Below, one piece after another: positions 11,426 to 32,000 of a stretch of 32,000 nucleotides of DNA. The notes beneath the pieces are model-generated. The model was not told the DNA's origin. It did no database searches and worked only from the letters and a program-made list of their open reading frames with translations. The position numbers and the translations under genes were made by a program. The DNA comes from an uncultured Actinomycetota bacterium (lineage in GTDB: Bacteria; Actinomycetota; Actinomycetes; Mycobacteriales; Mycobacteriaceae): positions 2,428,641-2,460,640 of the forward strand of contig CAVYDT010000008.1 of assembly GCA_963767375.1 (NCBI GenBank), read 5' to 3'. Within the stretch, counting starts at the first letter, position 1. Every line of letters begins with the position of its first letter.

Positions 11426-13153
11426 ATGTCATTTTTGCTCGTGGCGCCGGAAACCTTGGAGTCGGCCGCGGCCGATATCACGCAGATCGGTTCGACAGTG
11501 GGTGCCGGCAATCTGGCCGCAGCCATTCCGACGACTCAGTTGACCGCAGCGGCAGCCGACGAGGTGTCCGCGGCCATCGCGGCGGTGTTCGGCGCGCACG
11601 CCAAGGAGTACCAGGCGGCGGCGCTGGCGGCGACCTATCACGAGCAGTTTGCGCGCGGACTCAGTTCGGCAGCGGCGTCGTATGTGAGTGCAGAGGTCAG
11701 CATCGACACGACGCTGCAGGGCGTGGTGACTGCGGTGAATACGGCCGCTTCCAACGGTTTTCAGACGTTGGTCTACGGCCCGACACACACGGCCGGCGAA
11801 GCCTGGATCAACAGCTCGATCGGGCACGCACTCGACCCGATCATCAATGCGCCGACCGACGCGCTGTCGGGGCGCGATCTGATCGGCAACGGGGCGCCCG
11901 GAACGGCGACGGCCCCCAACGGCGGGCCCGGCGCTCTCCTGTTCGGTGATGGCGGGGCCGGCTACACCCAGACCAGCGGTCCATCTGCGACCGGTGGTAA
12001 CGGCGGCAATGCCGGACTGATCGGTAACGGCGGCGCCGGTGGTGGCGGGTTTGGCGGCGGGGCGGGCGGCGTCGGCGGCAACGGCGGGTTGATGGGCAAC
12101 GGCGGCGTGGGCGGTGCGGGCTCTGCAGGGGCTAACGGCGGCAACGGTGGCCAGGCGTTGTTAGTCGGCAACGGTGCCGCAGGCGGGGCCGCGGGTGCCG
12201 GCGGTGTCGCTGGAACTACCGGTTATCGCGGGCTGTTCATCGGCACCGGTGCCACAGCCTTGACCGGGACCGGCGGAGAGCATCAGTCGATCCAAATTGA
12301 CTTCGTGCGGCACGGGCAGACCAACAGCAACGCTTCGGACATCATCGACACGGCGATACCCGGTGCTCCACTCAATGCACTGGGCCTGCAACAGGCGAAC
12401 ACCATTGCGACTGTGCTGAATTCGCAGGGGCCCTTCGCCGCGATCTTCGACTCGCAGTTGATCAGGACGCAGCAGACCGCCCTGCCGTTGGAAACCCTCA
12501 CGGGGTTGACCGCGCAACCGTTGGCAGGGCTCAACGAGATCAATGCCGGCATTCTCGAGGGCATGCCGCAAATTCCCGCGGGGCTGCTCTACATCGTGGG
12601 CCCCATCGCGTGGACTCACGGATTGCCCCTCGTGGCGATGCTGGCCCCGGGCTCCACCAATCCCAACGGGGTGGTTTTCGACCAGGGCTTCGACAATGCG
12701 CTTGAAACGATGTACGACGCCGCGCTGGCGAACCCGGTCGTGGCGGCGAACGGCCAGATCACCGACGTGGCGTACTCGAGCGAACTTGCCATCGAGGTCG
12801 GGACGTTGATGTCCGTCAACAACCCCCAGCCCTTGCTGATGCTCACCCACCCGCTGCCCAACACCGGCGTTGTGGTGGTGGACGGCAGTCCACAGGGTGG
12901 CTGGACGATGGAAAGTTGGGATGGGACATCAATCCCGCAGGCGTCCTTGGGCACCTCGCTATTCGTCGATGTGCGTAACCTCATCACGGCGCCACAATTT
13001 GCGTCCTATGACATTTTGCAAGCCTTCCTCACCGGCAATCCAGCGACGATCGTGAACGCGGTCCGGTACGGCGTTGTGCAAGTAGGTATGGCCGCAATCG
13101 AATTCCCGTTCGCGGTCGCCCAGAGCCTGATCGATGCTGTGACTGGCTCCTGA
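11426..13153 (+). CDS. PE_PGRS family protein with a C-terminal histidine-phosphatase (phosphoglycerate-mutase-like) domain
   Basis: PE domain MSFLLVAPE...AAADEVSAAIAAVFGAHAKEYQ. Linker motif GRDLIGNGAPG. Gly-rich GGAGG/GGNGG repeats. These are followed by IDFVRHGQTNSN...DSQLIRTQQTA...NEINAGILEG (RHG catalytic His, branch-1 histidine phosphatase). The architecture matches that reported for M. tuberculosis PE_PGRS11. Confidence 0.9.
   Translation: MSFLLVAPETLESAAADITQIGSTVGAGNLAAAIPTTQLTAAAADEVSAAIAAVFGAHAKEYQAAALAATYHEQFARGLSSAAASYVSAEVSIDTTLQGVVTAVNTAASNGFQTLVYGPTHTAGEAWINSSIGHALDPIINAPTDALSGRDLIGNGAPGTATAPNGGPGALLFGDGGAGYTQTSGPSATGGNGGNAGLIGNGGAGGGGFGGGAGGVGGNGGLMGNGGVGGAGSAGANGGNGGQALLVGNGAAGGAAGAGGVAGTTGYRGLFIGTGATALTGTGGEHQSIQIDFVRHGQTNSNASDIIDTAIPGAPLNALGLQQANTIATVLNSQGPFAAIFDSQLIRTQQTALPLETLTGLTAQPLAGLNEINAGILEGMPQIPAGLLYIVGPIAWTHGLPLVAMLAPGSTNPNGVVFDQGFDNALETMYDAALANPVVAANGQITDVAYSSELAIEVGTLMSVNNPQPLLMLTHPLPNTGVVVVDGSPQGGWTMESWDGTSIPQASLGTSLFVDVRNLITAPQFASYDILQAFLTGNPATIVNAVRYGVVQVGMAAIEFPFAVAQSLIDAVTGS
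11885..12280 (+). repeat. PGRS low-complexity GGC/GGT-rich coding repeats
   Basis: Residues ~154-285 of the PE_PGRS protein are Gly-Gly-Ala/Asn repeats. The nucleotide sequence is iterated ggcggc(a/g)acggcgg-type units. Confidence 0.8.
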
Positions 13154-15843: not shown

Positions 15844-16833
15844 CTATTCCTCACCTAATCGACCGCAAGTTTGAGTTACACCAGGTACGAACGACGCCAG
15901 TCCAATTCCTTTGTAGCGCGCGATGATTCGCTCGTACTCTCGTCTATTGCGTGCCAACGGTGTGTCCGTGAATCGACTGGGCAGCCACCGGTAGGCGAGC
16001 CGCAGCACTCTGGTAAACACTGTGAACTCGAGGTCGTGGCGGCGGGTCCAGGCCATCGGAACAATCTCGCGCACGCGCGGGTGCATGATGCCGAACCCCA
16101 GCACCGCCACAATATGTCCCGCCACTGGTCCGAGCAGCGTCCATAGCGGCGCTGTGATAGCCGGGATGGATGCAGGCGGTCGTGGCCGCAGGGTGGCGTC
16201 CATGACAATGTCGAGACTGGCTGTGTGCTTTAACTTTTCGGCGACCACCCGATCGTAGTACGCGCAGAGTTCGTCGTAGCTCTCCGCAAGCTGTCGTGCG
16301 CGGCCAGGCATCTGCAGGTCCTCGCACAGCGCCCGGAAACGGTCCCAGATCGCTTGGTTCTCCGAGGCGCCGAGCCGTTCACCCGCGATCGCGACGAAGG
16401 CTCCTCGGTGCATGAAGAAGATGCTGATCAGATTCCAGTTCCACGGTTCAGGGCTTAGGGCGCTGTAGCGCACCCCGTCGGGGGCAACGCCTTTCACGTC
16501 GCGGTGCAGTTCCACCAGCCGCTGCATTTCGCCGCGACGGTCAGCGCAATTGGCTAGAAACGCGAGTTGATCCGAGGCAGCGGTGCGGCGCGCCCGCCCG
16601 AGCGGGTCGTCGCGGATTCGGGCAGTGTCTACGAGTGCCGCCGAGACCGCCGGCAACATCATCTCATCGAACAGGGCAGGCGAGAAAAGGGCGAGGAACC
16701 GTGAACCAACCACGCGCTCGAATCGATCCGCCACAGATTCGACAGCGGTGTCCACAGATTCGGTTGACACATCTATTTGCTCCGCCGATGCGTCTAGCGA
16801 TTCGATGGACACGTGCAGCGATTCGGCCGACAT
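15844..16833 (-). CDS. MpaB/DUF2236-family oxygenase
   Basis: LHRDVKGVAPDGVRYSALSPEPWNWNLISIF is the characteristic DUF2236 block. The start is set at ATG 16833 after GGAGGAGG. The ORF-track start at 16935 lacks an RBS. Confidence 0.75.
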   Translation of the reverse strand: MSAESLHVSIESLDASAEQIDVSTESVDTAVESVADRFERVVGSRFLALFSPALFDEMMLPAVSAALVDTARIRDDPLGRARRTAASDQLAFLANCADRRGEMQRLVELHRDVKGVAPDGVRYSALSPEPWNWNLISIFFMHRGAFVAIAGERLGASENQAIWDRFRALCEDLQMPGRARQLAESYDELCAYYDRVVAEKLKHTASLDIVMDATLRPRPPASIPAITAPLWTLLGPVAGHIVAVLGFGIMHPRVREIVPMAWTRRHDLEFTVFTRVLRLAYRWLPSRFTDTPLARNRREYERIIARYKGIGLASFVPGVTQTCGRLGEE

Positions 16834-16853
16834 GGTGCCTCCTCCGCTCATAA

Positions 16854-16905
16854 TTCTGGTGCATATCGGCACCAAAAGGTATTGTGGTGTCAGACTGCAC
16901 CAGAA
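16854..16905. promoter_or_regulatory. Nested inverted repeats built on the TGGTGC half-site (probable TetR operator pair)
   Basis: TTCTGGTGCA (16854-63) and TGCACCAGAA (16896-905) are perfect 10-bp inverted arms. Inside the span are TGGTGCatatcgGCACCA (16857-74) and TGGTGtcagactgCACCA (16885-902). The site lies between the divergent TetR and MpaB-like genes. Confidence 0.5.
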
Positions 16906-16936
16906 ATATCGATTGGTCAAGGGGTTCTGAGGCACA

Positions 16937-17599
16937 ATGCACTCAATGGCAACCGCGACCCGCGGCTACGGTGGCGTGACCGCTGAGCAACGACGCGCCA
17001 TCCGTCGCGCAGCACTGATTGAAGCAGCGCTCGATCTGTTCGCCGAAGACGGTGCACGGGCAGTGTCGAAACGTGCGGTGTGCGCACGTGCACGGCTCAA
17101 CGACCGTTACTTTTACGAGCATTTCGCTCACTCGGACGCGTTGCTCGAAGCGATTGCGCGCGACCTCACCGCCGAGGGACTCGAGGCGGTGAACGCCGCC
17201 ACGCGTAGCGTCGCATCCGATATCCGCGTGCAAGTCCACGCCATTGCTGACGCGGCTCTCGCTTTCCTGACCGCCGACCCGCGCCGCGGCCAGCTACTTC
17301 TGCGCTCTCATACCTCCGAAGTGCTGCAGCGCGCCCGCCTGGACAGCACCCGCGCAATTTCGACTGCGATGTCCGCGATGCTCAGGCAGCCGCTCGGCGC
17401 TTCCGCAGCCAGCCAACTCGACACCGATATGGCATCGTTTGCGCTCGTCAGCGGTGCCATGGAAGTGATCGCTGGTTGGCTACGCAGCGACTTCGACACC
17501 ACCCGCGAGCACGTCGCCGCTATTGTCGCCCGGTTGCTCTTGGCCGCCGCCGATGTCTCTAGCGCACTGCCTGGCTCAACGGGCAACGCCGTTCAATAG
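16937..17599 (+). CDS. TetR/AcrR-family transcriptional regulator
   Basis: N-terminal HTH: AALDLFAEDGARAVSKRAVCARARLNDRYFYEHFAHSDALLEA. Divergent from the MpaB-like operon. Confidence 0.85.
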   Translation: MHSMATATRGYGGVTAEQRRAIRRAALIEAALDLFAEDGARAVSKRAVCARARLNDRYFYEHFAHSDALLEAIARDLTAEGLEAVNAATRSVASDIRVQVHAIADAALAFLTADPRRGQLLLRSHTSEVLQRARLDSTRAISTAMSAMLRQPLGASAASQLDTDMASFALVSGAMEVIAGWLRSDFDTTREHVAAIVARLLLAAADVSSALPGSTGNAVQ

Positions 17600-19755: not shown

Positions 19756-20643
19756 ATGATGATCTTTTACGCGCTGGCCGCAGCGTTCGGCCTTGGTGCG
19801 CTCTGGCTGGGCACAAGCGTTCGGGTCGTCAAGCAATTCGAACGAGGCGTCGTCTTTCGTTTCGGACGTGTGCAAACCGGTGTCCGCGGACCGGGGCTCA
19901 CGCTGCTGATTCCAGTCGCCGATCGCCTCGAGAAGGTGAATATGCAGATCATCACGATGCCGGTGCCCGCGCAGGATGGCATCACCCGCGATAACGTGAC
20001 CGTGCGTGTGGATGCAGTCATCTATTTTGATGTTGCGGATCCGGTGCGTGTGGTTGTCGGCGTACAGGACTATGTGTCCGCTATTGGCCAGGTCGCGCAG
20101 ACATCGCTGCGGTCGATCATCGGCAAAAGCGACCTGGACGACCTACTCTGCAACCGCGAGGGTCTCAATCAGGGCCTGGAGTTGATGATCGACAGCCCCG
20201 CGGTGGGCTGGGGTGTTCACATCGACCGTGTGGAAATCAAAGATGTAGTACTGCCGGATTCGATGAAGCGGTCGATCGCGCGCCAAGCCGAGGCGGAGCG
20301 TGAGCGGCGGGCTCGGGTGATCACTGCCGACGGTGAACTGCAGGCGTCTGAAAAATTGGCCCAAGCGGCCCAGACGATGACCGCGCACCCGGCTGCGCTT
20401 CAGTTGCGGCTGTTGCAAACCGTGGTTGAGGTCGCCGCCGAGAAGAACTCCACCCTGGTGCTTCCCTTCCCCGTCGAACTGCTCCGGTTCTTGGAACGAG
20501 CGACACCGGAAGCGTCCGGGAGCTCTGACGACGACGCCGCTACACGCTCCACCTCGGCCGCAGCTTCGAAGAGCGAGATGCCGAAGCTGGACCCGCCGCA
20601 GATCCCCGACGACGCCAGCGCTCTGCGAGTCGACACACGCTGA
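19756..20643 (+). CDS. SPFH/band-7 (stomatin-prohibitin-like) membrane protein
   Basis: N-terminal TM, then VVKQFERGVVFRFGRV...PGL..LIP..D.......Q....PAQD.ITRDNV.V.VDAV.Y, the canonical SPFH core. It continues with an EAERERRA coiled coil. ATG 19756 follows GGAGG. Confidence 0.9.
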   Translation: MMIFYALAAAFGLGALWLGTSVRVVKQFERGVVFRFGRVQTGVRGPGLTLLIPVADRLEKVNMQIITMPVPAQDGITRDNVTVRVDAVIYFDVADPVRVVVGVQDYVSAIGQVAQTSLRSIIGKSDLDDLLCNREGLNQGLELMIDSPAVGWGVHIDRVEIKDVVLPDSMKRSIARQAEAERERRARVITADGELQASEKLAQAAQTMTAHPAALQLRLLQTVVEVAAEKNSTLVLPFPVELLRFLERATPEASGSSDDDAATRSTSAAASKSEMPKLDPPQIPDDASALRVDTR

Positions 20644-20890
20644 ATCTGGTCGAATTACTGGCTGGCCCAACGAATCTCACGGAATCGCTGTCGGGCTATG
20701 TTGCGGCGTGGCCGGACCTGCTGATCTCCGACTATCCATCCAGTCGGTGTCGAGGGCATCTCGTTGCAGACCGCCTAGAGCTGCGAATGACTTTTGAGAG
20801 CCTCGTATCTCGTCTTTTTCGAGACCGCTTTCAGTTCTGTTCGGGCCTGGTCGATTGGTCGCATGCGTGGTCACCGTGGCGGCGGCGGAG

Positions 20891-21358
20891 CTACGCGGGC
20901 AGATCCACCCGCAGCGCCAGGTGCTCATCGAGTATCCGGCGCAGCGCGGCGTCCATCGGATGCGCGGATGCGAGGTCGCGGCCGAGCCGGCTGTCCACTA
21001 CGACTACCGTGCCCTCACGCAGTTCGGCGGTGTCGACCTGGTCGACGAACGGATCGAACAATGCGGGCGGCGTGGCCAGGTAATACAGCGCCCGGCGCGA
21101 CTCGTTCAACCCGGCGGCATACATCAGTCCGTGTTGGGTGATCACGAAGAGTTCCGAGGCGATCCTGGCGTTCGGGGTCTCGGCTTTGCCCCATGCCATT
21201 GCGGCGCACCGGGTCTGTGCCAATCTATCGGGGACGTCGTCAGTCAGCGTGAGTAATTTGTCGACGAGTGCTCCACCCATTCGCGGATATGCGTCGATGG
21301 CGGTTCTGAAGTAGCGCCGGAAGATCTCGCCGAAAAAGTCGTACGGTTGCTCGCTCAT
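20891..21358 (-). CDS. Hypothetical 155-aa protein resembling the central part of the glucose-6-phosphate dehydrogenase N-domain (probable decayed zwf fragment)
   Basis: LYYLATPPALFDPFV...VVVVDSRLGRDLASAHPMDAALRRILDEHLALRVDLPA* is colinear with the G6PD blocks fYLA.PP.lF ... EKPFGhDLaSA..LN ... RIDHYLGKE. The catalytic blocks are degenerate, and the Rossmann start and C-terminal domain are missing. Confidence 0.45.
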   Translation of the reverse strand: MSEQPYDFFGEIFRRYFRTAIDAYPRMGGALVDKLLTLTDDVPDRLAQTRCAAMAWGKAETPNARIASELFVITQHGLMYAAGLNESRRALYYLATPPALFDPFVDQVDTAELREGTVVVVDSRLGRDLASAHPMDAALRRILDEHLALRVDLPA

Positions 21359-21550
21359 CGCAGCTCCCCAGGTTTCAGACGGACACCTCAATTGTGCGCC
21401 CGTACGGTCAGCTGAGCACGTGTTTGGCCAGGACGGCGGGCTAGCAGCATCGCGACCACCATCGATGTCCTCATCAACCTGAAGACAGGCGCCTGGACCG
21501 TCCTCTGGGTCTGGCTATTTTTCGCTGGGGCCAGCGCACCCGCGCCACCG

Positions 21551-21650
21551 AGCACAATGCGCAAAAGCTCAAAATCGCCTGTTGCGTGGGCTATTGCGCA
21601 CAAGCGAGTCACGGCCGCTGCCAATCCCTAGCCTTCGAGCTCAACAGGTT
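21551..21650 (+). repeat. Locus-specific intergenic repeat module, copy A (shortest and most diverged)
   Basis: It shares the invariant CACAATGCGCAAAA block, ACAAGCGAG and TTCGAGCTCAAC with copies B-D. It lies upstream of the alpha/beta hydrolase gene. Confidence 0.65.
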
Positions 21651-21692
21651 GTCGGATTCGTTCCCGACATCGACACCGACAAGGAGTACACA

Positions 21693-22745
21693 ATGTTGAC
21701 TCGGCCATATCCGACTACGGCATCTCCCGCGTATCGTCCGACGACGCCTTTGCCCGCCTCGGGCGGTGGCAGTCTCGACAGTACGGCCGCGCATCTGCAG
21801 CGATTGGACGCGAAGCGCGATGGCTATGCCGAGCGAACGGTTATCACGAGTGACGGCGTGCGGCTGGCGGTCCGCGACTACGGCTCTGCCGGTGCTCGCG
21901 ACCACACGGTCGTCCTGCTGCACGGTCTTTGCCTGACACAGTCGAGCTGGGCACTCCAAGTTCGCCACTTGGTGAGTCGGTGGGGCAACAGCATACGAAT
22001 CATCACCTACGATCACCGCGGCCACGGCAATTCGGGCGGCGCGGAAATGCACACCTACCGGATCGACCGACTCGCTGCTGACCTCGCCGAGGTGCTGACC
22101 GTTCTGAACGTCACGGGCCCGGTCACTCTGGCGGGACACTCGATGGGCGGAATGACAGCGCTGGCATACCTCGGCCGTCCCGCCGACGATCGTCCGGTGG
22201 AACCGCACGGCCTGGTCCTGGTTGCCACCGCGGCTGGCCGTCTCGCGGAGCGAGGCCTCGGCCGGTTGCTGGCCACCCGCGCCACTGGGATGCTGTTCGA
22301 TCTCGTTGACCACATGCCCCGGCGCATGGACCAGGTGATCCAGGGTCTCGTGCGGCCGGTCTGCAAAGGTGTAATCAGATATGCCGGCGCCGCGCGGGGC
22401 GGCGCCGCCGCAGTCACAGCATCCGCCCTCCACACAAACTCTTTGACGACTGCGGCCGGCTTCCTTCCCAGCCTGAAGCGATACGACCAGTATCAGACGC
22501 TTGCCTCCATTACCGCAAAGACAATCGTCATCAGTGGCGGAGCGGACATGACGACCCCAGCCGACCACGCGCGCGACCTAGTCGCCGCCATCCCGGGTGC
22601 TACCCATCTGCACCGCCCCACCGCCGGGCACATGATTCTCCAGGAGGAATCACACCGCGTCAGCAGCGCAATCGACGGCGTGGTGGGCATGCACCGCCGA
22701 TCCGTGCGTAGGGCACCGTCGCAACGTATGTGCTGCGCCGTCTAA
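21693..22745 (+). CDS. Alpha/beta-fold hydrolase
   Basis: VVLLHGLC oxyanion region, GHSMGG nucleophile elbow and C-terminal AGHMILQEE His. ATG 21693 follows AAGGAG. Pro/Thr-rich N-terminus. Confidence 0.85.
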   Translation: MLTRPYPTTASPAYRPTTPLPASGGGSLDSTAAHLQRLDAKRDGYAERTVITSDGVRLAVRDYGSAGARDHTVVLLHGLCLTQSSWALQVRHLVSRWGNSIRIITYDHRGHGNSGGAEMHTYRIDRLAADLAEVLTVLNVTGPVTLAGHSMGGMTALAYLGRPADDRPVEPHGLVLVATAAGRLAERGLGRLLATRATGMLFDLVDHMPRRMDQVIQGLVRPVCKGVIRYAGAARGGAAAVTASALHTNSLTTAAGFLPSLKRYDQYQTLASITAKTIVISGGADMTTPADHARDLVAAIPGATHLHRPTAGHMILQEESHRVSSAIDGVVGMHRRSVRRAPSQRMCCAV

Positions 22746-22920
22746 ATGGCTGCGTGCGTATGAAAGCCGTTCGCGGCGCGCGATTCTGGGCGACCAGACG
22801 GCCGGAGACTCAGGCCAATTCGGACGGTCCGATTGATGTGCAACCCACGCTTTGATGCGGTCGTAGCGTCCGGTCGCTGACCGATCGAGGCAGCCGGTGC
22901 GCGCGTCGGTTCGGTCTGAC

Positions 22921-23070
22921 GTCGCGGGTGAACACAATGCGCAAAACTTCGAAATCGTCGCTTATTCCGACTATCGCCCACAAGAGCGACATCGCTGTAA
23001 GCCCGCCGTAAGTTCTAAATCAACGAATAACTGAACACACCGCACGATCGCAGCGGGAAAAGATTCACCC
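22921..23070 (+). repeat. Locus-specific intergenic repeat module, copy B
   Basis: GTCGCGGGTGAACACAATGCGCAAAACTTCGAAATCGTCGCTTATTCCGACTATCGCCCACAAGAGCGAC..., alignable with copies C and D over ~150 bp. Upstream of the condensation-domain gene. Confidence 0.8.
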
Positions 23071-23158
23071 GATCGCGACGAACCATTCGCGATTAGCCGT
23101 TCCGCCATTCTAACGCCGCGCAATAAACGTCGGCATCACACGGACAAGGATTAAGGAA

Positions 23159-24607
23159 ATGGTCGCACTGGGCAGCATCACCGGATGGCAGCCGGCAGAC
23201 GGTTTGGTTACGACTTGGATGGCCTCACCCGCGACACGCGAAGCGGCTCGGAATGCGCGGCGAAGCGATCTACCACCGAGCTACCAGAGGAGTCAGCACC
23301 TCCAGGCAGCCCACGAATACAAGGCGAGGGGCATGCAGCTACCACGCCTGATGGTCGTGGCGTGGGACATACCCGGCGTGTGTGACATTTCGGCAATGAC
23401 GGCAACGATCAACGCGCACGTGCGTCGTCACGATGCGTATCACGATTGGTTCCAAATCGAAAACGGCGCCTTTGTCCGTGGGACGATCGACAATCCCGAG
23501 GTCATCGAATTTGCCCCCACGAATTTCGGACATATGCACGCTGAACAAATACGCACGCACGCGTTATCGACGACGCCGGAGACACTTGAGTGGGACTGCT
23601 TCACATTTGGCATCGTCCAGCACACTGACTATTTCACGTTCTACGCCAGTGTCGACCATCTCCACATCGACGGTATGTCGGCCGGCCTGATCTTCGTCGA
23701 CATCCACTTGATGTACCAGGATCTGTCAAAGGCCGTGCATCGACCCAGCATGTTTCCGCAGGTCGCGAGCTACCGCAGCTACGCGGCACGGCAGCGCGAC
23801 AAGGTGACGAGCCTGACCCTGTCGTCGCCTGAGATCAGGGACTGGATCGAGTTCGCGCAGGACACCGACGGCGACTGGCCGAAATTCCCGCTACCGGTCG
23901 GTGATACGTGGACCAATAACAAAGGCGACTTCCTGACGGTCGACTTGTTGGACGATGTCGAGACGGAGTCTTTCGACACCGCATGCACCGAGGCCGGTGT
24001 TCGGTTCAGCGGGGGTGTTCTGGCGTGCGCAGCGCTGGCCGACCACGAGTTGACCGGCACCGAGACATACCACGGATTCACACCATCCGACACGCGGATG
24101 CCTGGCATCGACACGATGACTGTGGGTTGGTTCGCCAGCCTGATTCCGATCACGGTGCCGACGGGCATCTGCTCGTTTCCCGCGGCGGCCCGGGCTGCGC
24201 AGAAATCGTTCGATGACGCCAAACACCTTGCCAGCGTGCCGATTAAACGAGTCCTCGAGCTGGCGGCCCAGCACCGACTGAGGATCAATCCGCCATCGCC
24301 TCACGCAATGATGGTGTCCTTCATGGATTTACGTAAAATACCGCTCGCCGCATTATTCGGCGAGACCAATTTCGGTACCTACGGCGACAATTTGTCGCAC
24401 GGTGGGATCAACTTGTGGATCAACCGCCACGCTGACAAGACCACAGCGACGATCTCCTTTCCGGATAACCCCGTCGCGCGTGAGTCGGTGCATCGCTACA
24501 TCGCGGCGTTGACCCAGGCGTTCGCGCGCGTCAACACCACCTCGGACTGGGTGAGTGCGGTTGCAGACCATGCGAACTCGGGGCACGGCATACCTGTTCT
24601 CAGCTAG
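23159..24607 (+). CDS. Condensation-domain (HHxxxDG-type) acyltransferase, PapA/NRPS-C-like
   Basis: Active-site motif SVDHLHIDGMSAG. N-terminal PPSYQRSQHL resembles the C-domain C1 motif. 482 aa. AAGGATTAAGGA RBS. GC is visibly lower than in the neighbouring genes. Confidence 0.8.
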   Translation: MVALGSITGWQPADGLVTTWMASPATREAARNARRSDLPPSYQRSQHLQAAHEYKARGMQLPRLMVVAWDIPGVCDISAMTATINAHVRRHDAYHDWFQIENGAFVRGTIDNPEVIEFAPTNFGHMHAEQIRTHALSTTPETLEWDCFTFGIVQHTDYFTFYASVDHLHIDGMSAGLIFVDIHLMYQDLSKAVHRPSMFPQVASYRSYAARQRDKVTSLTLSSPEIRDWIEFAQDTDGDWPKFPLPVGDTWTNNKGDFLTVDLLDDVETESFDTACTEAGVRFSGGVLACAALADHELTGTETYHGFTPSDTRMPGIDTMTVGWFASLIPITVPTGICSFPAAARAAQKSFDDAKHLASVPIKRVLELAAQHRLRINPPSPHAMMVSFMDLRKIPLAALFGETNFGTYGDNLSHGGINLWINRHADKTTATISFPDNPVARESVHRYIAALTQAFARVNTTSDWVSAVADHANSGHGIPVLS

Positions 24608-24628
24608 CAACGAAGGGGCCTTAGGAAA

Positions 24629-25978
24629 ATGAGCAACATACTTGATCTGGTCGACCAGACCTTCTTTCGCGTCGAGCGGGCGGCCGCAGTCACCAACGTG
24701 ATTCAGTGTGTCTGGGTTTATGACCGCCCGGTCGGCATCGATGGACTGCGCCAGTTCCATCACCATCTGCAGCGGGGGCGGTTATCCCGTCGCATCGAGC
24801 GCTCACCGTTGCCGTTCGGCCGGCATCGCTGGGTCTCGCCTGGTGATCAGTCCGATCTCGAGGTCGCTACGCCTCGGCCGCGTGAAGAATTCGACGCCTG
24901 GCTGAACGAGCAGAGCAACACCTCCATCGATCCCGAGCACGGACCCGGGTGGCACCTCGCAGTGCTGCCCTTCATCGACGGCGGCGCGGGGGTGAGCTTG
25001 GTCGCCGCACATTGCCTGAGCGACGGCGTCGGGTTGTGCGAGGCGGTGGCGGACGCGGCTTGCGGCTCCGACAACGCAATGAGCTGGCCTGCTGCCGGGT
25101 CTCGCCCGCGCTGGCAGGCCCTGCGGGAGGACGCCCGCCAAACCGTGCGGGACATCCCCGAGATCGGCCGCGCCGTCGCCGCCGCAGCACGATTTGTCCG
25201 GCATAACCTCGGCCGTGCGGGATCTGCTACCCCGACACCTGCGCCGACCGCCGGCGCCGACGAGCGCATCACTGTCCCAACGGCAATGATCTTCGTGGAT
25301 GCCGACGAGTGGGACGCCCGTGCACACTCACTCGGAGGGACCAGCAACACCCTTCTCGAGGCATTGGCCGCCCGCCTCGCACAGCGAGTCGGACGGGTCA
25401 CTGCAGACGGCTCAGTCACCTTGACGATGCCCATCAACCAGCGCACCGCCGGCGATACCCGCGCCAACGCCATCACGAACGTCGACATCACGGTCGACCC
25501 CGCACCCGCAACGACGGATCTGCGCGAGATCCGGGCCGCAACCAAGCAAGCACTGATCCGCTCTCAGGAGCAGCCCGACGAACGGTGGACGCTGCTGCCT
25601 CTCGTTCCGCTGGTGCCTGAGGGGCTGGGCCGGCGATGGGTCGGCGCGGCCACCAACAGTGCGATCAGCGTGGGCGCATCCAACGTCGGTGTGGTCAACC
25701 CGGCCGTCAACCGGCCAGACGGTACGGACGCCGACCATTTCGCCATGAAGTCGCTCGGCCTGGGTATGACCACGACGACGATGCACCAGCTCGGCGGGCT
25801 GCTGTCTTTGCTCTCCGGAAGGGCGCACGGACGGGTCTTCGTCTCGGTCGTTGCGTATCAGCCGGACCGCCCCAACTCAAACGACCAACTGCAACAGCGC
25901 CTTTCGAGCGTTCTGAGCGAATTCTCGCTCACCGCCACGATCGGCTGGCCATGCAATGAGCCGGTGGGGGCGCGGTAG
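24629..25978 (+). CDS. WS/DGAT-like CoA-dependent acyltransferase, tandem paralog 1
   Basis: Motif VAAHCLSDGVG (single-His HxxxDG). N-terminal LDLVDQTFF (compare LSPLDAxFL of WS/DGAT). C-terminal ASNVG...VSVVAYQ block (compare the NVPGP region). 449 aa, 21 nt after the previous stop. Confidence 0.75.
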   Translation: MSNILDLVDQTFFRVERAAAVTNVIQCVWVYDRPVGIDGLRQFHHHLQRGRLSRRIERSPLPFGRHRWVSPGDQSDLEVATPRPREEFDAWLNEQSNTSIDPEHGPGWHLAVLPFIDGGAGVSLVAAHCLSDGVGLCEAVADAACGSDNAMSWPAAGSRPRWQALREDARQTVRDIPEIGRAVAAAARFVRHNLGRAGSATPTPAPTAGADERITVPTAMIFVDADEWDARAHSLGGTSNTLLEALAARLAQRVGRVTADGSVTLTMPINQRTAGDTRANAITNVDITVDPAPATTDLREIRAATKQALIRSQEQPDERWTLLPLVPLVPEGLGRRWVGAATNSAISVGASNVGVVNPAVNRPDGTDADHFAMKSLGLGMTTTTMHQLGGLLSLLSGRAHGRVFVSVVAYQPDRPNSNDQLQQRLSSVLSEFSLTATIGWPCNEPVGAR

Positions 25979-26002
25979 GCATCACCCGCTGATGACCCTG
26001 GT

Positions 26003-26156
26003 GTCGCGGGTAAGCACAATGCGCAAAACTACGAAATCGTCGCTTATTCCGACTATCGCTTACAAACGCGACAGAGGGGCAAGCGGCGCGGTAATTTCGA
26101 GTTCAACAAACAACAGAAATACGTCGCAAGATCTACTGCGGGAACAGAATTCACGC
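26003..26156 (+). repeat. Locus-specific intergenic repeat module, copy C
   Basis: GTCGCGgGTAAGC (26003-15) and GCTTACaaaCGCGAC (26058-72) are inverted arms around CACAATGCGCAAAACTACGAAATCGTCGCTTATTCCGACTATC. The copy lies between paralogs 1 and 2. Confidence 0.8.
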
Positions 26157-26267
26157 TAGCGCCAAAAGTCATTCACGAACATCCGTTTTTTGCCATGGAT
26201 GACATTGCCCACCAAGCGAATTCGGATGAGCAGTACCCATAGGCAACTAACAAGAAAGGCGTTGGAA

Positions 26268-27623
26268 ATGAGCAACGTACTTGATCTGATCGACCAGACC
26301 TTCTTTCGCCTCGAGGGGGCGGCCGGAGTCGGGCAGTCTGTCTGGGTATATAACCGCCCGGTCGACATCGACGGACTGCGCCGGTTCCATCACCACCTTC
26401 AGCGGGGGCGGTTATCCCGCCGAATCGAGCGCTCGCCCTTGCCGTTCGGGCGCGATCGCTGGGTGTCGCCCAGCGATCAGTCGGACCTCGAGATCGCGGC
26501 GCCCCGGCCGCGCGAAGAATTCGACGGCTGGCTCAACGAGCAGGCCAACATCCCCCTCGATGCCGAGCACGGACCCGGCTGGCACCTCGCGGTGCTCCCC
26601 TTCACCGACGGCGGCGCGGGGGTGAGCCTAGTCCTCACGCATTGCATCACGGACGGCGGCGGAGGGGCCTTGGCCGTGGTGGAAGCGGCTTTCGGCTACG
26701 ATCACCCACTCAACTGGCCTGCTGCCGGGTCACGCCCGCGGTGGCGAGCGCTGCGCGAGGATGCCCGCCAAACCGTGCGCGACATCCCCGCAATCCGCCG
26801 CGCCGTCGTCGCCGCAGCACGATTCGCCCGGGCTAACCGCGGCGGCACCGTATCAGCCGCTTCGCCCGTTTCAAAGGCACCTGCGCCGAGCGCCGGAGCC
26901 GACGAGATCATCACGCTCCCAACCGCAACGATCTTTCTCGATGCCGAGGAGTGGGACACCCGCGCGCACGCACTCGGAGGGACCAGCAACACCCTGTTCG
27001 CGGGATTGGCGGCCCGCCTCGCCCAGCGACTGGGACGAGTCGCCGCAGACGGCTCGGTCACCTTGGCGGTACCCGTCAACGAGCGCACTGCGGACGATAC
27101 CCGCGCCAACGCGATCACGATTCTCGACATCACGGTCGACCCTGCACCCGTGACGACGGACCTGCGCCAGATCCGGGCCGCAACAAAGCAAGCGCTGATC
27201 CGACACCGGGAGGTGCCCGACGAACGGCAGACACTGCTGCCCCTGGTTCCCCTGCTGCCGCGGCGGCTCGCCAGGCGAATGGTCGCCACGGCCACCGGCG
27301 GCGCGACCAACATCGCTGTCCCATCCAACCTCGGCACGGCCCCCCCGGCCGTCAACCAACCAGACGGCACAGACGCCGACTACGTCGCCGTGCGGTTTCT
27401 CTACCCGGGTATGACCAAGGCGATGGTGCACCAGCTCGGCGGGGTGCTGTCTTTGCACTCGGGAAGGGTGGACCGACAGATCTTCGTCTCGGTCGTTGCG
27501 TACCAGCCGGACCGCCCCAATTCGAATGACGACTTGCAACAGCGCATTTCGACCGTTCTGCGCGAGTTCTCGCTCACCGCTACGACGGGCTGGCCGTGCA
27601 ATGAGCCAATGGCGGCGGCGTAG
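26268..27623 (+). CDS. WS/DGAT-like CoA-dependent acyltransferase, tandem paralog 2
   Basis: Motif LTHCITDGGGG. The start is set at ATG 26268 (MSNVLDLIDQTFF), matching the other paralogs and following an AAAGG RBS. The ORF-track start at 26190 adds 26 non-homologous residues. Confidence 0.75.
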   Translation: MSNVLDLIDQTFFRLEGAAGVGQSVWVYNRPVDIDGLRRFHHHLQRGRLSRRIERSPLPFGRDRWVSPSDQSDLEIAAPRPREEFDGWLNEQANIPLDAEHGPGWHLAVLPFTDGGAGVSLVLTHCITDGGGGALAVVEAAFGYDHPLNWPAAGSRPRWRALREDARQTVRDIPAIRRAVVAAARFARANRGGTVSAASPVSKAPAPSAGADEIITLPTATIFLDAEEWDTRAHALGGTSNTLFAGLAARLAQRLGRVAADGSVTLAVPVNERTADDTRANAITILDITVDPAPVTTDLRQIRAATKQALIRHREVPDERQTLLPLVPLLPRRLARRMVATATGGATNIAVPSNLGTAPPAVNQPDGTDADYVAVRFLYPGMTKAMVHQLGGVLSLHSGRVDRQIFVSVVAYQPDRPNSNDDLQQRISTVLREFSLTATTGWPCNEPMAAA

Positions 27624-27659
27624 TAGGCGTGGGCAAGCAACAAGAAAAGGAGCTTAGAA

Positions 27660-29093
27660 ATGAGCAACGTACTCGATCTGGTCGACCAGACCTTCTTTCT
27701 CGGCGAGCAAGCGACCGGCGTCACCATGGTGCTGCAGTGCGTGTGGGTCTATGACCGCGCGATCGATACCGACGGTCTGCGGCGGTTCCATCACCATCTT
27801 CAGCGGGGCCGGTTATCCCGCCGCATCGAACGCTCGCCCTTGCCGTTCGGCCGCCATCGCTGGGTCTCGCCCAGCGATCAGCCCGACCTCGAGATCGTCG
27901 CGACGCCTCGGCCGCGCGCAGAATTCGACGCCTGGCTCAGCGAGCAGGCCAACACCACCCTGGACGCCGAGCACGGACCCGAATGGCACCTCGCGGTGCT
28001 CCCCTTCACCGACGGCGGCGCGGGAGTGAGCTTGGTCATCTCGCATTGCCTCACCGACGCCGTCGGGTTGTGCGAGGCGTTGACGGACGCGGCTTCCGGC
28101 CGCCACGACCCCATCAGCTGGCCCACTTCCGGCTCGCGCCGGCGGTGGCGAGCACTCCGCGAGGACGCCCGCCAAACCGCGCGCGACCTCCCCGGTATCG
28201 GCGGAGCCGTCGTCGCCGCAGCACGATTGGCCCGACGTAACCGCGGCAGCGCGGGATCAACCGCCCTGCTAAACGCCGGGTCACCTGCACCGCTCGCCGG
28301 AGCGCATGAACGCATCACCCTCCCATCGGCAACGATCTTTGTCGATGCCGATGAGTGGGACGCCCGCGCACATTCACTGGGAGGGACCAGCAACACCCTT
28401 CTCGCGGGATTGGCGGGCCGCCTCGCCCAGCGAGTGGGCCGGGTCACCGCAGACGGCTCAGTCACCTTGGGTATGCCCGTCAACCTGCGCACCGCCGGCG
28501 ATACCCGCGCCAACGCAGTCACCAATGTCGACATCACAGTGGACCCCGAACCCGCGGCGATAGACCTGCGCGGGATGCGGGCCGCAACAAAGCAAGCGCT
28601 GATCCGCTCTCAGGAGGCGCCCGACGAACGGTTGGCGCTGCTACCCGTCGTTCCTCTGTTGCCGCAGTGGCTGGTCAAGCGAATGGTCAACCTGGCCACT
28701 AGCAGTGCGACCAGCGTCGTCTCATCCAACTTCGGTGTGGTCAACCCGGCCGTCTACCGGCCAGACGGAACAGACGCCGACCACTTCGCGATAAAGGGTT
28801 CCAACTTGGGTGTGACCAAGGCGATCATGCACCGCACCGGCGGAATCATGGCGTTGCTCTCGGGAAGATCGGATCGACAGGTCTTCGTTTCGGTCCTTGC
28901 GTATCAGCCGGACCGCACCAACTCGAATGACACTCTGCGGAAAGACCTTTCGAGCGCTCTGAGCGACTTCTCGCTCACCGCCACGATCGGCTGGCCATGC
29001 CCTGGGCCAGTGAGAAAAGCGCGCGTCGCGACCACCAGGGAACAAGTAAATGCGATTGCAGACCAAGTGGATTCGTCAAGCCGTATGGCCTGA
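27660..29093 (+). CDS. WS/DGAT-like CoA-dependent acyltransferase, tandem paralog 3 (C-terminal ~25-aa extension)
   Basis: Motif ISHCLTDAVG (Gly to Ala after the Asp). 477 aa. It starts 36 nt after paralog 2. A unique tail KARVATTREQVNAIADQVDSSSRMA follows the shared WPCPGPV end. Confidence 0.75.
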   Translation: MSNVLDLVDQTFFLGEQATGVTMVLQCVWVYDRAIDTDGLRRFHHHLQRGRLSRRIERSPLPFGRHRWVSPSDQPDLEIVATPRPRAEFDAWLSEQANTTLDAEHGPEWHLAVLPFTDGGAGVSLVISHCLTDAVGLCEALTDAASGRHDPISWPTSGSRRRWRALREDARQTARDLPGIGGAVVAAARLARRNRGSAGSTALLNAGSPAPLAGAHERITLPSATIFVDADEWDARAHSLGGTSNTLLAGLAGRLAQRVGRVTADGSVTLGMPVNLRTAGDTRANAVTNVDITVDPEPAAIDLRGMRAATKQALIRSQEAPDERLALLPVVPLLPQWLVKRMVNLATSSATSVVSSNFGVVNPAVYRPDGTDADHFAIKGSNLGVTKAIMHRTGGIMALLSGRSDRQVFVSVLAYQPDRTNSNDTLRKDLSSALSDFSLTATIGWPCPGPVRKARVATTREQVNAIADQVDSSSRMA

Positions 29094-29130
29094 CAGCCCA
29101 ACCAAGTGACAAGGAAAGGACCTTAAGAAA

Positions 29131-30513
29131 ATGAACAACGTACTCGATCTGATCGACCAAAGCGCGTTTCTCGCCGAGCGAGCGACCGGAGCCACCAACG
29201 TGATTCAGTGTGTCTGGGTGTACAACCGTGCGATCGACATCGACGGTCTGCGCCAGTTCCATCACCATCTTCAGCGGGGGCGGTTGTCCCGCCGCATCGA
29301 ACGCTCACCCTTGCCGTTCGGACGCCATCGCTGGGTCTCGCCCAGCGGTCAGTCCGACCTGGAGATCGTCGCCACGCCTCGGCCGCGTGAAGAATTCGAT
29401 GCTTGGCTCAGCGAGCAGGCCAACACCCCCCTGGATTCCGAGCACGGACCCGGATGGCACCTGGCGGTGCTCCCGTTCACCGACGGCGGCGCGGGGCTGA
29501 GTTTCGTTATCTCACATTCCCTCATCGACGGCGTCGGGCTGTGCGAGGCGTTGGCGGACGCGGCTTCCGGCCGCCACGACCCCATCAGCTGGCCTGCTGC
29601 CGGGTCACGCCGGCGCTGGCAAGCACGGCGGGAGGACGCCCGCCAAACCGCGCGCGACATCCCCGCCATCGGCCGCGCCGTCGTTGCCGTGGCACGATTC
29701 GCAAGGCGTAGCCGCGGTGCTGACGGATCTGGCACCCAGCTGCCTAGCGCGCCGCGTTCGCCGATCGTCGGAGCTCACCAGCTCGTCGCTCTGAATAAGG
29801 CAATGATCTTCGTCGACGCCGACGAGTGGGACGCCCGCGCACACTCACTCGGGGGGACCAGCAACGCGCTGCTCGCGGGATTGGCGGCCCGTCTCGCCCA
29901 GCGAGTAGGACGGGTCGCCGGGGACGGCTTCGCCACCCTGGAGATACCCGTTAACGAGCGCGCCGCCGGCGATACCCGCGCCAATGCGATGACAAGTGTC
30001 GACATCACGGTCGACCCCGAACCCGCGGCGACGGACCTGCGCGAGATCCGGGCCGCAATCAAGCAAGCGCTGATCCGCTATCAGGAGGCCGGCGACGAAC
30101 GGCGGGCAATGCTGCCCCTCGCTCCTCTGCTGCCGCAGTGGGTGGTTAGGCGAATGGTCAGCGTGGCCCTCGGCGGCGCGACGACCAGCGGATCATCCCA
30201 CCTCGGTGCGATCAACCCGGGCGTCAACCGGCCAGACGGCACAGACGCCGACTACTTCGCCGGAAACTCTTTCTTCCTGGGGGCGACCGGGACCGGGGCG
30301 CCCGTGGCGACGATAGCCCGCACCGGCGGGCTGCTGGGGTTGCTCTCGGGAAGAGTGCACGGACGGGTCTTCCTCTCGGTCGTTGCGTATCAGCTGGCCC
30401 GTTCCGACTCGAATGACGACTTGCGGGAGCATATTTCGAGCGTTCTGAGTGACTTCTCGCTCACCGCCACGATCGGCTGGCCATGCCCTGAGCCAGTGGG
30501 CGGGGCGCGGTAG
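29131..30513 (+). CDS. WS/DGAT-like CoA-dependent acyltransferase, tandem paralog 4
   Basis: Motif ISHSLIDGVG. 460 aa. It starts 37 nt after paralog 3, and the RBS and start context are conserved (AAGGAAAGG...AAAATGAACAACGTACTCGATCTG). Confidence 0.75.
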   Translation: MNNVLDLIDQSAFLAERATGATNVIQCVWVYNRAIDIDGLRQFHHHLQRGRLSRRIERSPLPFGRHRWVSPSGQSDLEIVATPRPREEFDAWLSEQANTPLDSEHGPGWHLAVLPFTDGGAGLSFVISHSLIDGVGLCEALADAASGRHDPISWPAAGSRRRWQARREDARQTARDIPAIGRAVVAVARFARRSRGADGSGTQLPSAPRSPIVGAHQLVALNKAMIFVDADEWDARAHSLGGTSNALLAGLAARLAQRVGRVAGDGFATLEIPVNERAAGDTRANAMTSVDITVDPEPAATDLREIRAAIKQALIRYQEAGDERRAMLPLAPLLPQWVVRRMVSVALGGATTSGSSHLGAINPGVNRPDGTDADYFAGNSFFLGATGTGAPVATIARTGGLLGLLSGRVHGRVFLSVVAYQLARSDSNDDLREHISSVLSDFSLTATIGWPCPEPVGGAR

Positions 30514-30524
30514 ACGCCCCCCGC

Positions 30525-30686
30525 CTGGCGGGTGAGCACAATGCGCAAAATCGTGGAATCGGCGCTAACTCCGACTATCGCTTACAAGCGCGACACGGGT
30601 GCAAGCGGCGCCGTAAGTTCGGTCTCGACCAGACAACTCGCTAGGCGTCCGTACGTCGCCCGGTTCGCCAAGGGGCGGGGAATCCT
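30525..30686 (+). repeat. Locus-specific intergenic repeat module, copy D
   Basis: CTGGCGGGTGAGCACAATGCGCAAAATCGTGGAATCGGCGCTAACTCCGACTATCGCTTACAAGCGCGAC..., alignable to copy C over ~160 bp. It lies between paralog 4 and mmpL. Confidence 0.8.
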
Positions 30687-30742
30687 GGCTTTGCTGCCGC
30701 TCCTGCTTACCCAGGCTTGACACACCAATGAAGGGCTTCACC

Positions 30743-32000
30743 ATGTTCAAAAAGTCCGCCGCGCCCAAGACCTCTGCCGCTGCCAAGACGCGCATCGGTG
30801 CGTTTTCGGTGTTGGGTCGCTTCGTCGTGCGTGCGCCCTGGCTCATCATCGCCGCCTGGATCGCTGTGGTCGCCGTGCTGGCCGTGGCCCTCCCCCCACT
30901 GACGAAGGTGGTCGAAAGCCATCCACTACAGCCGCTGCCGCCCAAAGCTATGGCGGCGGCCGAGCAGATGGCCAAGGATTTCGGTGAATCCGCCCAGAAT
31001 GTCCTGATTGTCGTACTCACCGACAATCGGGGTCTGCAACCTGCTGATGAGGACGCCTACCGCAAGCTCGCCGATACGTTACGCAGCAAGACCAACGATG
31101 TGACCGGCGTGCAGGACATCGCTACCACACCCGCACTGCGTCCATTGATGGTCAGCGCGGACAACAAGGCGTTTTACATGGCGGTGGCCCTGAGGGCGCC
31201 TATCGGATCCCCTGAGTCCTCGCAGGCCTACCAACGGATCACAGAAATCGCCAAACGCTCCACCGCGGGCTCCTCGCTGACCGCGGAGGTGACGGGACAG
31301 GCTGCCATGGCCGGCGACCTGTCGATCGTCTCCGCCCGCGACATGCACATCATCGAGATGGTCACCGCATTGTTCGTGCTGATCATCCTGCTGGTGGTCT
31401 ACCGGCGACCTGTGACCGTGTTGCTGCTGTTGATCACCGTCGGAATTTCGGTCGCGTCGGCCCAGGGCGTGGTGTCCGGGCTAGCCCTGCTCGGACTCGG
31501 GGTGTCCACGCTGACGATCGTGTTGATGACGGCGATGATCGTGGGCGCCGGCACCGACTATGCCGTCTTCTTGATCAGCCGCTACCACGAGTACATCCGG
31601 TCCGGCATGGACTCCGACCTGGCCGTACAAAAAGCACTGAGCTCCATCGGCGAGGTCATCGCGGCGTCGGCGGCCACCGTTGCCGTCACCTTTCTCGGCA
31701 TGGTCTTCACCCGCATGCCCGCGTTCACGAGTATTGGTCCGGCGCTCGCGGTTTCGATCGGGGTCGCATTTCTCGCCGCCGTCACGCTGTTGCCCGCCCT
31801 ACTCGTGCTCGCCGGTCGACGCGGATGGGTGACGCCGCGACCGGCGCTCACCGGCCGCCTGTGGCAACGGTCTGCCGTTCAGCTGGTTCGCCGGCCCAAA
31901 GCGCATCTGCTGGTTAGTCTGTCGGTGTTGATCGCGCTGGCCGGCTGCGCGGCCTTCCTCCAGCCCACCTTCAACGACCGCCTGCAATTGTCGCAGTCAG
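30743..32000 (+). CDS. mmpL: MmpL-family RND lipid transporter (5' part; continues beyond the window)
   Basis: The frame stays open to the window end. N-terminal TM, periplasmic domain, then TM bundle with the hallmark MMPL block IVGAGTDYAVFLISRYHEYIRSG. The start is ATG 30743 (after AAGGG) or the in-frame ATG 30728. No mmpS lies upstream. Confidence 0.9.
   Translation, partial: MFKKSAAPKTSAAAKTRIGAFSVLGRFVVRAPWLIIAAWIAVVAVLAVALPPLTKVVESHPLQPLPPKAMAAAEQMAKDFGESAQNVLIVVLTDNRGLQPADEDAYRKLADTLRSKTNDVTGVQDIATTPALRPLMVSADNKAFYMAVALRAPIGSPESSQAYQRITEIAKRSTAGSSLTAEVTGQAAMAGDLSIVSARDMHIIEMVTALFVLIILLVVYRRPVTVLLLLITVGISVASAQGVVSGLALLGLGVSTLTIVLMTAMIVGAGTDYAVFLISRYHEYIRSGMDSDLAVQKALSSIGEVIAASAATVAVTFLGMVFTRMPAFTSIGPALAVSIGVAFLAAVTLLPALLVLAGRRGWVTPRPALTGRLWQRSAVQLVRRPKAHLLVSLSVLIALAGCAAFLQPTFNDRLQLSQS

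Follow-up and report, generated by a model that had tools for sequence, protein, structure and literature searches.

A repeated module before the units of a mycobacterial lipid locus as a likely response-regulator-dependent promoter

Why should one stretch of some 100–160 bp stand, in the same orientation, in front of each of the four apparent transcription units of a lipid locus? The question is raised by a 32,000-nucleotide piece of contig CAVYDT010000008.1 (assembly GCA_963767375.1, an uncultured member of the Mycobacteriaceae), which is the whole stretch that we analysed and which we call the window. Four copies of such a module, A to D, precede genes for an alpha/beta hydrolase, a PapA-like condensation-domain protein, a WS/DGAT-like protein (paralog 2) and MmpL. 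A first-pass annotation, made from the letters of the window, read each copy as a promoter of the sigma-A type that shares with the others an upstream site for a regulator, and named a mobile repeat and a structured leader RNA as alternatives. Comparative data support the promoter reading, through conservation at orthologous positions, a hexamer that is kept in every scorable copy, copies that face genes, and hydrolase genes that keep the module away from the locus. We thus consider it likely that the module is a response-regulator-dependent sigma-A promoter that defines a regulon, with a neighbouring DcuS/CitA-type two-component system, of the citrate/dicarboxylate kind, as its probable regulator, one that is probably also self-regulating. 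Within this proposal, the evidence is stronger for a promoter with its operator than for which regulator acts on it.

Anatomy and conservation of the module

All four copies lie on one strand at the places where they had been annotated, and a profile search (nhmmer) recovers each of them on the + strand (Table 1). The block described as common to them is exact: the 14-mer CACAATGCGCAAAA occurs at 21553, 22933, 26015 and 30537, with no fifth match at up to two mismatches, where 0.18 occurrences are expected by chance and none of 100 shuffles reached four. CCGACTATCGC is likewise exact in copies B, C and D. The TANNNT hexamers stand at the coordinates first given for them, each 17 or 18 nt 3′ of GCGACA (GAGTCA in copy A), and the downstream genes are of the kinds first proposed. 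Successive copies are spaced by 1380, 3082 and 4522 nt; being single and not tandem, they are by arrangement unlike the mycobacterial interspersed repetitive units (MIRU), which are tandem 40–100-bp units that lie in intergenic positions within operons.

In alignments, the module consists, in this order, of a conserved block of about 62 nt, a variable spacer of 17–18 nt, the TANNNT hexamer and a short conserved TTCGG. The layout of the block is TGAGCACAATGCGCAAAAC-N5-AATCGTCGCTTAT-CCGACTATCGC-N-CACAAGCGCGACA, and it contains box 1 (GAGCACAATGCGCAAAA), a central imperfect dyad (ATCGTCG-N7-CGACTAT) and box 2 (CACAAGCGCGACA). Box 1 (CACAA-T-GCGC-AAAA) recurs in degenerate form and direct orientation as box 2 (CACAA-GCGC-GACA), which lies 47 bp downstream and covers the −35 position. 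The spacer is free in sequence and varies in length by 1 nt. The hexamer pattern T-A-N-N-N-T, on the other hand, is present in all 131 scorable unique copies among the matches listed, 29–31 nt after the ACAA of box 2, and only its T, A and final T are invariant; positions 3–4 are free (TAAGTT, TAGCTT, TAACTT, TAATTT, TAGGTT and TACGTT all occur). Mycobacterial sigma-A promoters follow a TANNNT rule at −10, while a −35-like hexamer 16–19 nt upstream is optional. The GCGACA (or GAGTCA) of the window copies matches TTGACA at four of six positions and belongs to the conserved box 2; it may thus be a regulator site rather than a −35 element. Transcription would start about 7 nt after the hexamer, which implies leaders of about 52, 138, 164 and 117 nt for units 1–4 of the window. 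In some relatives the ATG follows the hexamer by 6–7 nt, which is the geometry of a leaderless mRNA, and other relatives have leaders of 24–36 nt with a ribosome-binding site; automatically assigned starts of downstream reading frames are unreliable at distances below 5 nt, and such cases were not used as evidence. A variant is seen upstream of PapA in a Nocardia sp. (locus L004, 9750-9868), where box 1 is duplicated in tandem (GAGCACAATGCGCAAAACCGTGAAACTGCATAAAACC).

The window is from an uncultured Mycobacterium; the best match to its PapA-like protein is 98% identical and comes from an ENA metagenome, and named species reach about 70%. Seven orthologous loci were compared, from M. conspicuum, M. 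paraense, M. colombiense, Mycobacterium sp. HNNTM2301, a Nocardia and two metagenomic contigs. Across them PapA identity is 68–77% and the module stands at orthologous positions: together with the window they yielded 25 full-length copies in the profile search, all on the gene strand, all preceding the hydrolase, PapA, some of the paralogs or mmpL, with none elsewhere in the 21-kb loci. Copy B has orthologous copies 5′ of PapA in 27 other loci, and copy D has counterparts 5′ of mmpL in 17 others; equivalents of copy C lie 5′ of internal paralogs in loci L002, L005, L006, L007, L022 and L026. Copy A belongs in sequence to an ‘ancestral/hydrolase’ subtype and is similar to the copies found at hydrolase and permease genes elsewhere. 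A strict-pattern scan with one genome per species returned at least 118 matching stretches, mostly from Mycobacterium and uncultured Actinomycetota, plus Nocardia jejuensis, with a minority from unrelated phyla; those of this minority that turned up again in the profile search matched it, at weak E-values, over no more than the part covered by the pattern, and the minority was treated as chance. The profile search of all loci gave at least 148 full-length copies (at least 136 of them unique) in at least 66 assemblies, and every copy checked faces a downstream gene.

These distributions bear directly on the possibility that the module is a mobile or selfish repeat, of the kind of a miniature inverted-repeat transposable element (MITE), or the passive relic of tandem gene duplications, which we regard as extremely improbable. 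It is true that several 100–160 bp copies stand in one locus and that copies C and D follow paralogous gene ends (family D3). Yet the sites are orthologous across species whose proteins diverge by about 30%, the copies are always co-oriented with the downstream gene, and terminal inverted repeats are not conserved. Furthermore, a generic MITE would be expected in hundreds of randomly placed copies; among the matches listed there are 1–5 copies per assembly over 66 assemblies, and a complete genome of 5.8 Mb yielded three strict-pattern matches, all 5′ of regulon genes. Without conserved terminal repeats and without dispersal among the matches listed, the MITE was rejected. The duplication relic was rejected too, because copies A and B flank a gene that is not a paralog and paralogs 3 and 4 of the window have no copy in front of them.

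The other alternative makes the module a cis-regulatory RNA with a fold of its own (leader, attenuator or processing site), which would be made from an upstream promoter or by read-through and would use the inverted arms as its stem. Copies B and C do carry such arms, of 13 nt, and the inner dyad is 91% pairable across copies, with one T-A to C-G swap between subtypes. In addition, the consensus terminator scan that picks out a hairpin before copy A (see below) finds no comparable site before copies B, C and D, so that an RNA read through from the upstream units, which is possible there, would include the element. We nevertheless judge this explanation to be very improbable. First of all, the arms that had been noted as brackets are not conserved in other species, with the outer helix pairing in 43.5% and the inner arm in 72.6% of cells (79 copies), and the arm changes that had looked pairing-preserving give a covariation score of 0.075, no better than when the partners are slid by 1–3 columns. 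Second, an Rfam search of 20000-32000 at E <= 10 returned chance matches only, none of them on the repeats, and RNAalifold predicts no pairs in the leaders of PapA. Third, there is no sequence conservation 5′ of box 1, where many loci have the coding region of the kinase gene on the other strand. Finally, the conserved block sits upstream of the −10, and an invariant T-A-N-N-N-T with a free middle is a signature of DNA recognition, not of RNA. For want of an Rfam match and of covariation, and given the position of the block, the structured leader was rejected. The lipid and the hydrolase/ancestral subtypes differ by the dyad swap, which probably happened once; the swap is compatible with a protein-binding dyad and is no evidence for RNA structure.

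The weaker similarity that had been noted over a further 60 nt or so is real, although it is mainly a property of PapA-type leaders and comes without a consensus RNA structure; the M. conspicuum PapA leader, at 62 nt, lacks most of it. Within this region, about 70 nt past the −10, lies a palindrome, CGCGA(A)-N5-8-(T)TCGCG (23081-23098), that is kept in most PapA-type leaders (L001, L003, L055, L056 and others), is absent from the M. conspicuum leader and has no RNAalifold consensus structure in PapA leaders. Either a small hairpin or another operator might account for it.

The two-component system beside mmpL

If the module is a regulated promoter, which protein would regulate it? In all loci with a visible flank (L001-L004, L007, L103, L126 and L127), mmpL is followed on the opposite strand by genes for a sensor kinase and a response regulator. 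In related loci the kinase has the Pfam domains sCache_3_2, SPOB_a and HATPase_c, and the regulator has Response_reg with HTH_IclR/HTH_11; the best NCBIfam matches are to the DcuS/MalK family for the kinase and to DcuR/DpiA for the regulator, and homologues are labelled ‘CitB family sensor kinase’ by JGI. Judging by relatives such as L103, whose MmpL is 93% identical, a system of this type is most likely encoded just past the end of the window.

A further tie between this pair and the module is the promoter of the kinase gene. Of 22 regions 5′ of kinase genes, 20 have the reverse complement of box 1 (TTTTGCGCATTGTGCTCA) 9–10 nt 5′ of a TANNNT hexamer (TAGGGT or TACGCT), and the distance of the box to the kinase start is constant both in genomes with the lipid locus and in those in which the system adjoins a transporter gene. 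This hexamer precedes the kinase ATG by 6–7 nt; the kinase promoter is thus leaderless in geometry, and the box lies in its −35 region. Elsewhere among actinobacterial genomes, the full module begins some 20 nt from the start codon of the kinase gene and would drive a divergent gene, which encodes an amino-acid permease (8 loci) or a metabolite/H+ symporter of the major facilitator superfamily (MFS). Because the kinase start is only about 20 nt 5′ of box 1, the promoter of the divergent gene must sit inside the module. Both layouts are joined in one metagenome-assembled genome (MAG; L074), in the order mmpL, paralogs, PapA, module, MFS gene, module, kinase and regulator genes. In M. conspicuum (L127, 1-30), directly 5′ of the kinase promoter box, there is an apparent 3′ end of a tRNA gene (GGTTCGAGTCCCCT...CCACC), which may mark an integration site of the locus.

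Several points weigh against the proposed explanation. The system itself lies beyond the end of the window and is seen only in related loci; its NCBIfam scores are far below the equivalog cutoffs, for kinase and regulator alike, so that the family is assigned and orthology is not; and the copy numbers are lower bounds, those of the strict-pattern scan included. As to the promoter, an E. coli-type consensus scan calls none of the sites, because TAAGTT matches TATAAT at three of six positions only; the predicted promoters rest instead on the general mycobacterial TANNNT rule given above. The box was not found in two of the 22 kinase upstream regions (L013 and L047), and about 60 bp is long for a single regulator's site; a second factor might be the one that uses the central dyad.

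The last two points would also favour a different arrangement, in which some protein outside the neighbouring two-component system binds the promoter module, for example a global regulator of lipids or carbon, or another factor that occupies the dyad, and the box near the kinase reflects that factor. The block does hold two kinds of sub-motif, the CACAA-GCGC direct repeats and the central dyad, and the motif of actinobacterial CitB is undefined (PMC3353115), so that no motif match can be claimed. We regard this arrangement as unlikely, since no further regulator gene is conserved beside the loci, whose upstream neighbours differ between species, while the kinase–regulator pair is constant and box 1 keeps its distance from the kinase start in both types of genome.

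The proposed regulon and the genes of the locus

Under the reading that we prefer, a response-regulator-dependent sigma-A promoter, each copy would be a complete regulated promoter, with TANNNT as the −10, the 17–18-nt spacer and the block of about 62 bp as operator. Box 1 is predicted to be centred near −84, the dyad near −60 and box 2 at −35. A phosphorylated regulator of the DcuR/CitB family would bind the boxes and bring RNA polymerase to a promoter whose −35 is poor, activating rather than repressing it, and the four units, namely the hydrolase gene, PapA with paralog 1, paralogs 2–4, and mmpL, would be induced together. Autoregulation would be added by the inverted box that lies at −35 in the leaderless promoter of the kinase gene itself. 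An older circuit appears to be the source of the lipid regulon, one where the module serves as the divergent promoter of the transporter gene beside the kinase.

Table 1. Module copies and transcription units in the window
Feature	Position	Strand	Predicted parts	Matches and associated genes
Copy A	21548..21644	+	box 1 GAGCACAATGCGCAAAA 21550-21566; −35-like GAGTCA 21606-21611; −10 TAGCCT 21629-21634	nhmmer 63.8 bits; 5′ of alpha/beta hydrolase (ATG 21693)
Unit 1	21693..22745	+		alpha/beta-hydrolase gene; Pfam Abhydrolase_1, E = 6.9e-24
Copy B	22926..23027	+	box 1 22930-22946; dyad ATCGTCG/CGACTAT 22954-22960, 22968-22974; −35-like GCGACA within box 2, 22986-22991; −10 TAAGTT 23009-23014	nhmmer 88.3 bits; 5′ of PapA-like condensation-domain acyltransferase (ATG 23159)
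Unit 2	23159..25978	+		PapA-like condensation-domain acyltransferase 23159-24607 and WS/DGAT-like paralog 1 24629-25978; Pfam Condensation
Copy C	26008..26109	+	box 1 26012-26028; GCGACA 26068-26073; −10 TAATTT 26092-26097	nhmmer 87.2 bits; 5′ of WS/DGAT-like paralog 2 (ATG 26268)
Unit 3	26268-27623, 27660-29093, 29131-30513	+		WS/DGAT-like paralogs 2, 3, 4; direct-repeat families D1-D5; WS_DGAT matches
Copy D	30530..30631	+	box 1 30534-30550; GCGACA 30590-30595; −10 TAAGTT 30614-30619	nhmmer 94.4 bits; 5′ of mmpL (ATG 30743)
Unit 4	30743..32000	+		mmpL, cut by window end; Pfam MMPL, E = 1.9e-93

The four units plausibly make and export, between them, an acylated envelope lipid of the trehalose type. 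For unit 2, the names that JGI gives to homologues are PapA3-type trehalose acyltransferases. The WS/DGAT-like proteins match NCBIfam acyl_WS_DGAT below its curated cutoff. Their four genes stand in tandem (24629-30513) with 62–87% nucleotide identity (families D1-D5), and across species their number ranges from 1 to 5, with the module 5′ of some of them only. Two gene starts required a choice: the hydrolase most likely begins at ATG 21693 and not at TTG 21582 of the mechanical list of open reading frames, and paralog 2 most likely at ATG 26268. Directly 5′ of copy A, the terminator scan marks a hairpin followed by a T-run (CTATTTTTCG) at 21493..21524 on the + strand, a pattern match only, which probably insulates unit 1 from upstream transcription.

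The module is not confined to the lipid locus. Hydrolase homologues keep the module at a distance from it (L025, L041 and L120): in the complete HNNTM2301 genome (CP169059) the hydrolase module lies 240 kb from the lipid locus (L025 and L014), in M. paraense the module-bearing hydrolase gene is on another contig (L041), and in one MAG it is 450 kb away (L120). Small PE genes that adjoin PapA or mmpL also have the module, and lower-scoring copies occur 5′ of genes of the ATP-grasp, PrpF, ICL/PEP-mutase-like and an unknown 333-aa family, some of these assignments being uncertain. In L033 (1481-1732) two full modules stand back to back and divergent, and one of them would drive a PEP-mutase/ICL-like gene. 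In a transporter-type genome (L107, 7414-7998), a homologue of the window hydrolase with 55% identity is convergent to the regulator gene, which suggests that the hydrolase is an old member of the circuit.

Two further features of the window lie outside the regulon. In the gap between the gene of an MPAB/Lcp-type oxygenase (15844-16935, −) and a divergent TetR gene (16937-17599, +), a 28-nt inverted repeat (ATAATTCTGGTGCATATCGGCACCAAAA / TTGTGGTGTCAGACTGCACCAGAAATAT) at 16850-16909 is probably the TetR operator. A PE-PGRS protein (11426-13153) bears a histidine-phosphatase domain (His_Phos_1).

How the regulon arose is a separate and more tentative matter. It may be, although we would not put it above an even chance, that a metabolite-sensing DcuS/CitA-type system of a divergent transporter (an amino-acid permease or a carboxylate-type MFS symporter) was rewired in a clade of nontuberculous mycobacteria to the synthesis and export of a PapA/WS-DGAT/MmpL envelope glycolipid, by the spread of a module of about 60 bp. 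If this is true, the mycobacterial surface would be remodelled in direct response to a small extracellular metabolite, and the module would be the first defined DNA target of an actinobacterial CitB-family regulator. More generally, the locus would provide a compact regulon for an uncharacterised envelope-lipid cluster that many nontuberculous mycobacteria have, among them M. colombiense, M. paraense, M. conspicuum, M. asiaticum, M. gordonae, M. szulgai and their relatives, with its probable sensor and regulator named and a route thus opened to the signal that induces the lipid. It would also offer an example of a promoter module that spreads while gene duplications enlarge a lipid locus, as well as a precise candidate motif for a response-regulator family that had no identified actinobacterial site as of a 2012 review (PMC3353115). 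Our literature searches found no paper for the box sequence in either orientation, and nothing relevant on mycobacterial CitA/DcuS-type systems in connection with mmpL or PapA loci. Two-component regulons with a shared promoter-operator are known as a kind; what appears undescribed is the present regulon, together with its motif and the connection to an envelope-lipid cluster.

Comparison with known systems

The closest comparison is with CitAB of Corynebacterium glutamicum, where citAB is divergent from its target citH, CitB activates citH, and CitB is reported not to be autoregulated, with its DNA motif undefined (PMC3353115). The layout is the same as that of L010, L044, L074, L085, L107, L114 and L125, with a kinase of the CitA/DcuS type and a regulator of the CitB type divergent from a transporter gene, which in C. 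glutamicum is activated. There are three qualifications. First, CitAB targets citrate carriers, while the regulon proposed here includes a PapA/WS-DGAT/MmpL lipid cluster. Second, CitB is reportedly not autoregulated, whereas here the box sits in the kinase promoter. Third, the likeness is one of family, at NCBIfam scores far below equivalog level. The E. coli systems DcuSR and DpiBA (CitAB) and the B. subtilis systems CitST, MalKR, DctSR and GlnKL are the best family matches, but their homology is distant and their targets are others. Regulators of the DcuSR/CitAB type are activators that bind 5′ of promoters for transport and catabolism, and the sites of DcuR are AT-rich repeats, to which the GC-containing CACAATGCGCAAAA box has no obvious likeness.

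In architecture, the module resembles Pho-box promoters, in which the site of the response regulator PhoB replaces the −35 element. Here box 2 in the target promoters and box 1 in the kinase promoter occupy −35 beside a good −10, which suggests that RNA polymerase is brought in by the regulator bound there. This likeness is architectural only, for PhoB has the winged helix of the OmpR/PhoB family and the regulator here a CitB-type output domain. As for the genes under control, PhoPR of M. tuberculosis governs the acyltrehalose loci pks2/papA1/mmpL8 and pks3/papA3/mmpL10, and PhoP is of the OmpR family and encoded outside the lipid locus. The present locus, unlike those two, has no pks or fadD nearby and holds 2–5 WS/DGAT-like paralogs; what it would share with them is the control of a PapA/MmpL-type envelope-lipid cluster by a two-component system.

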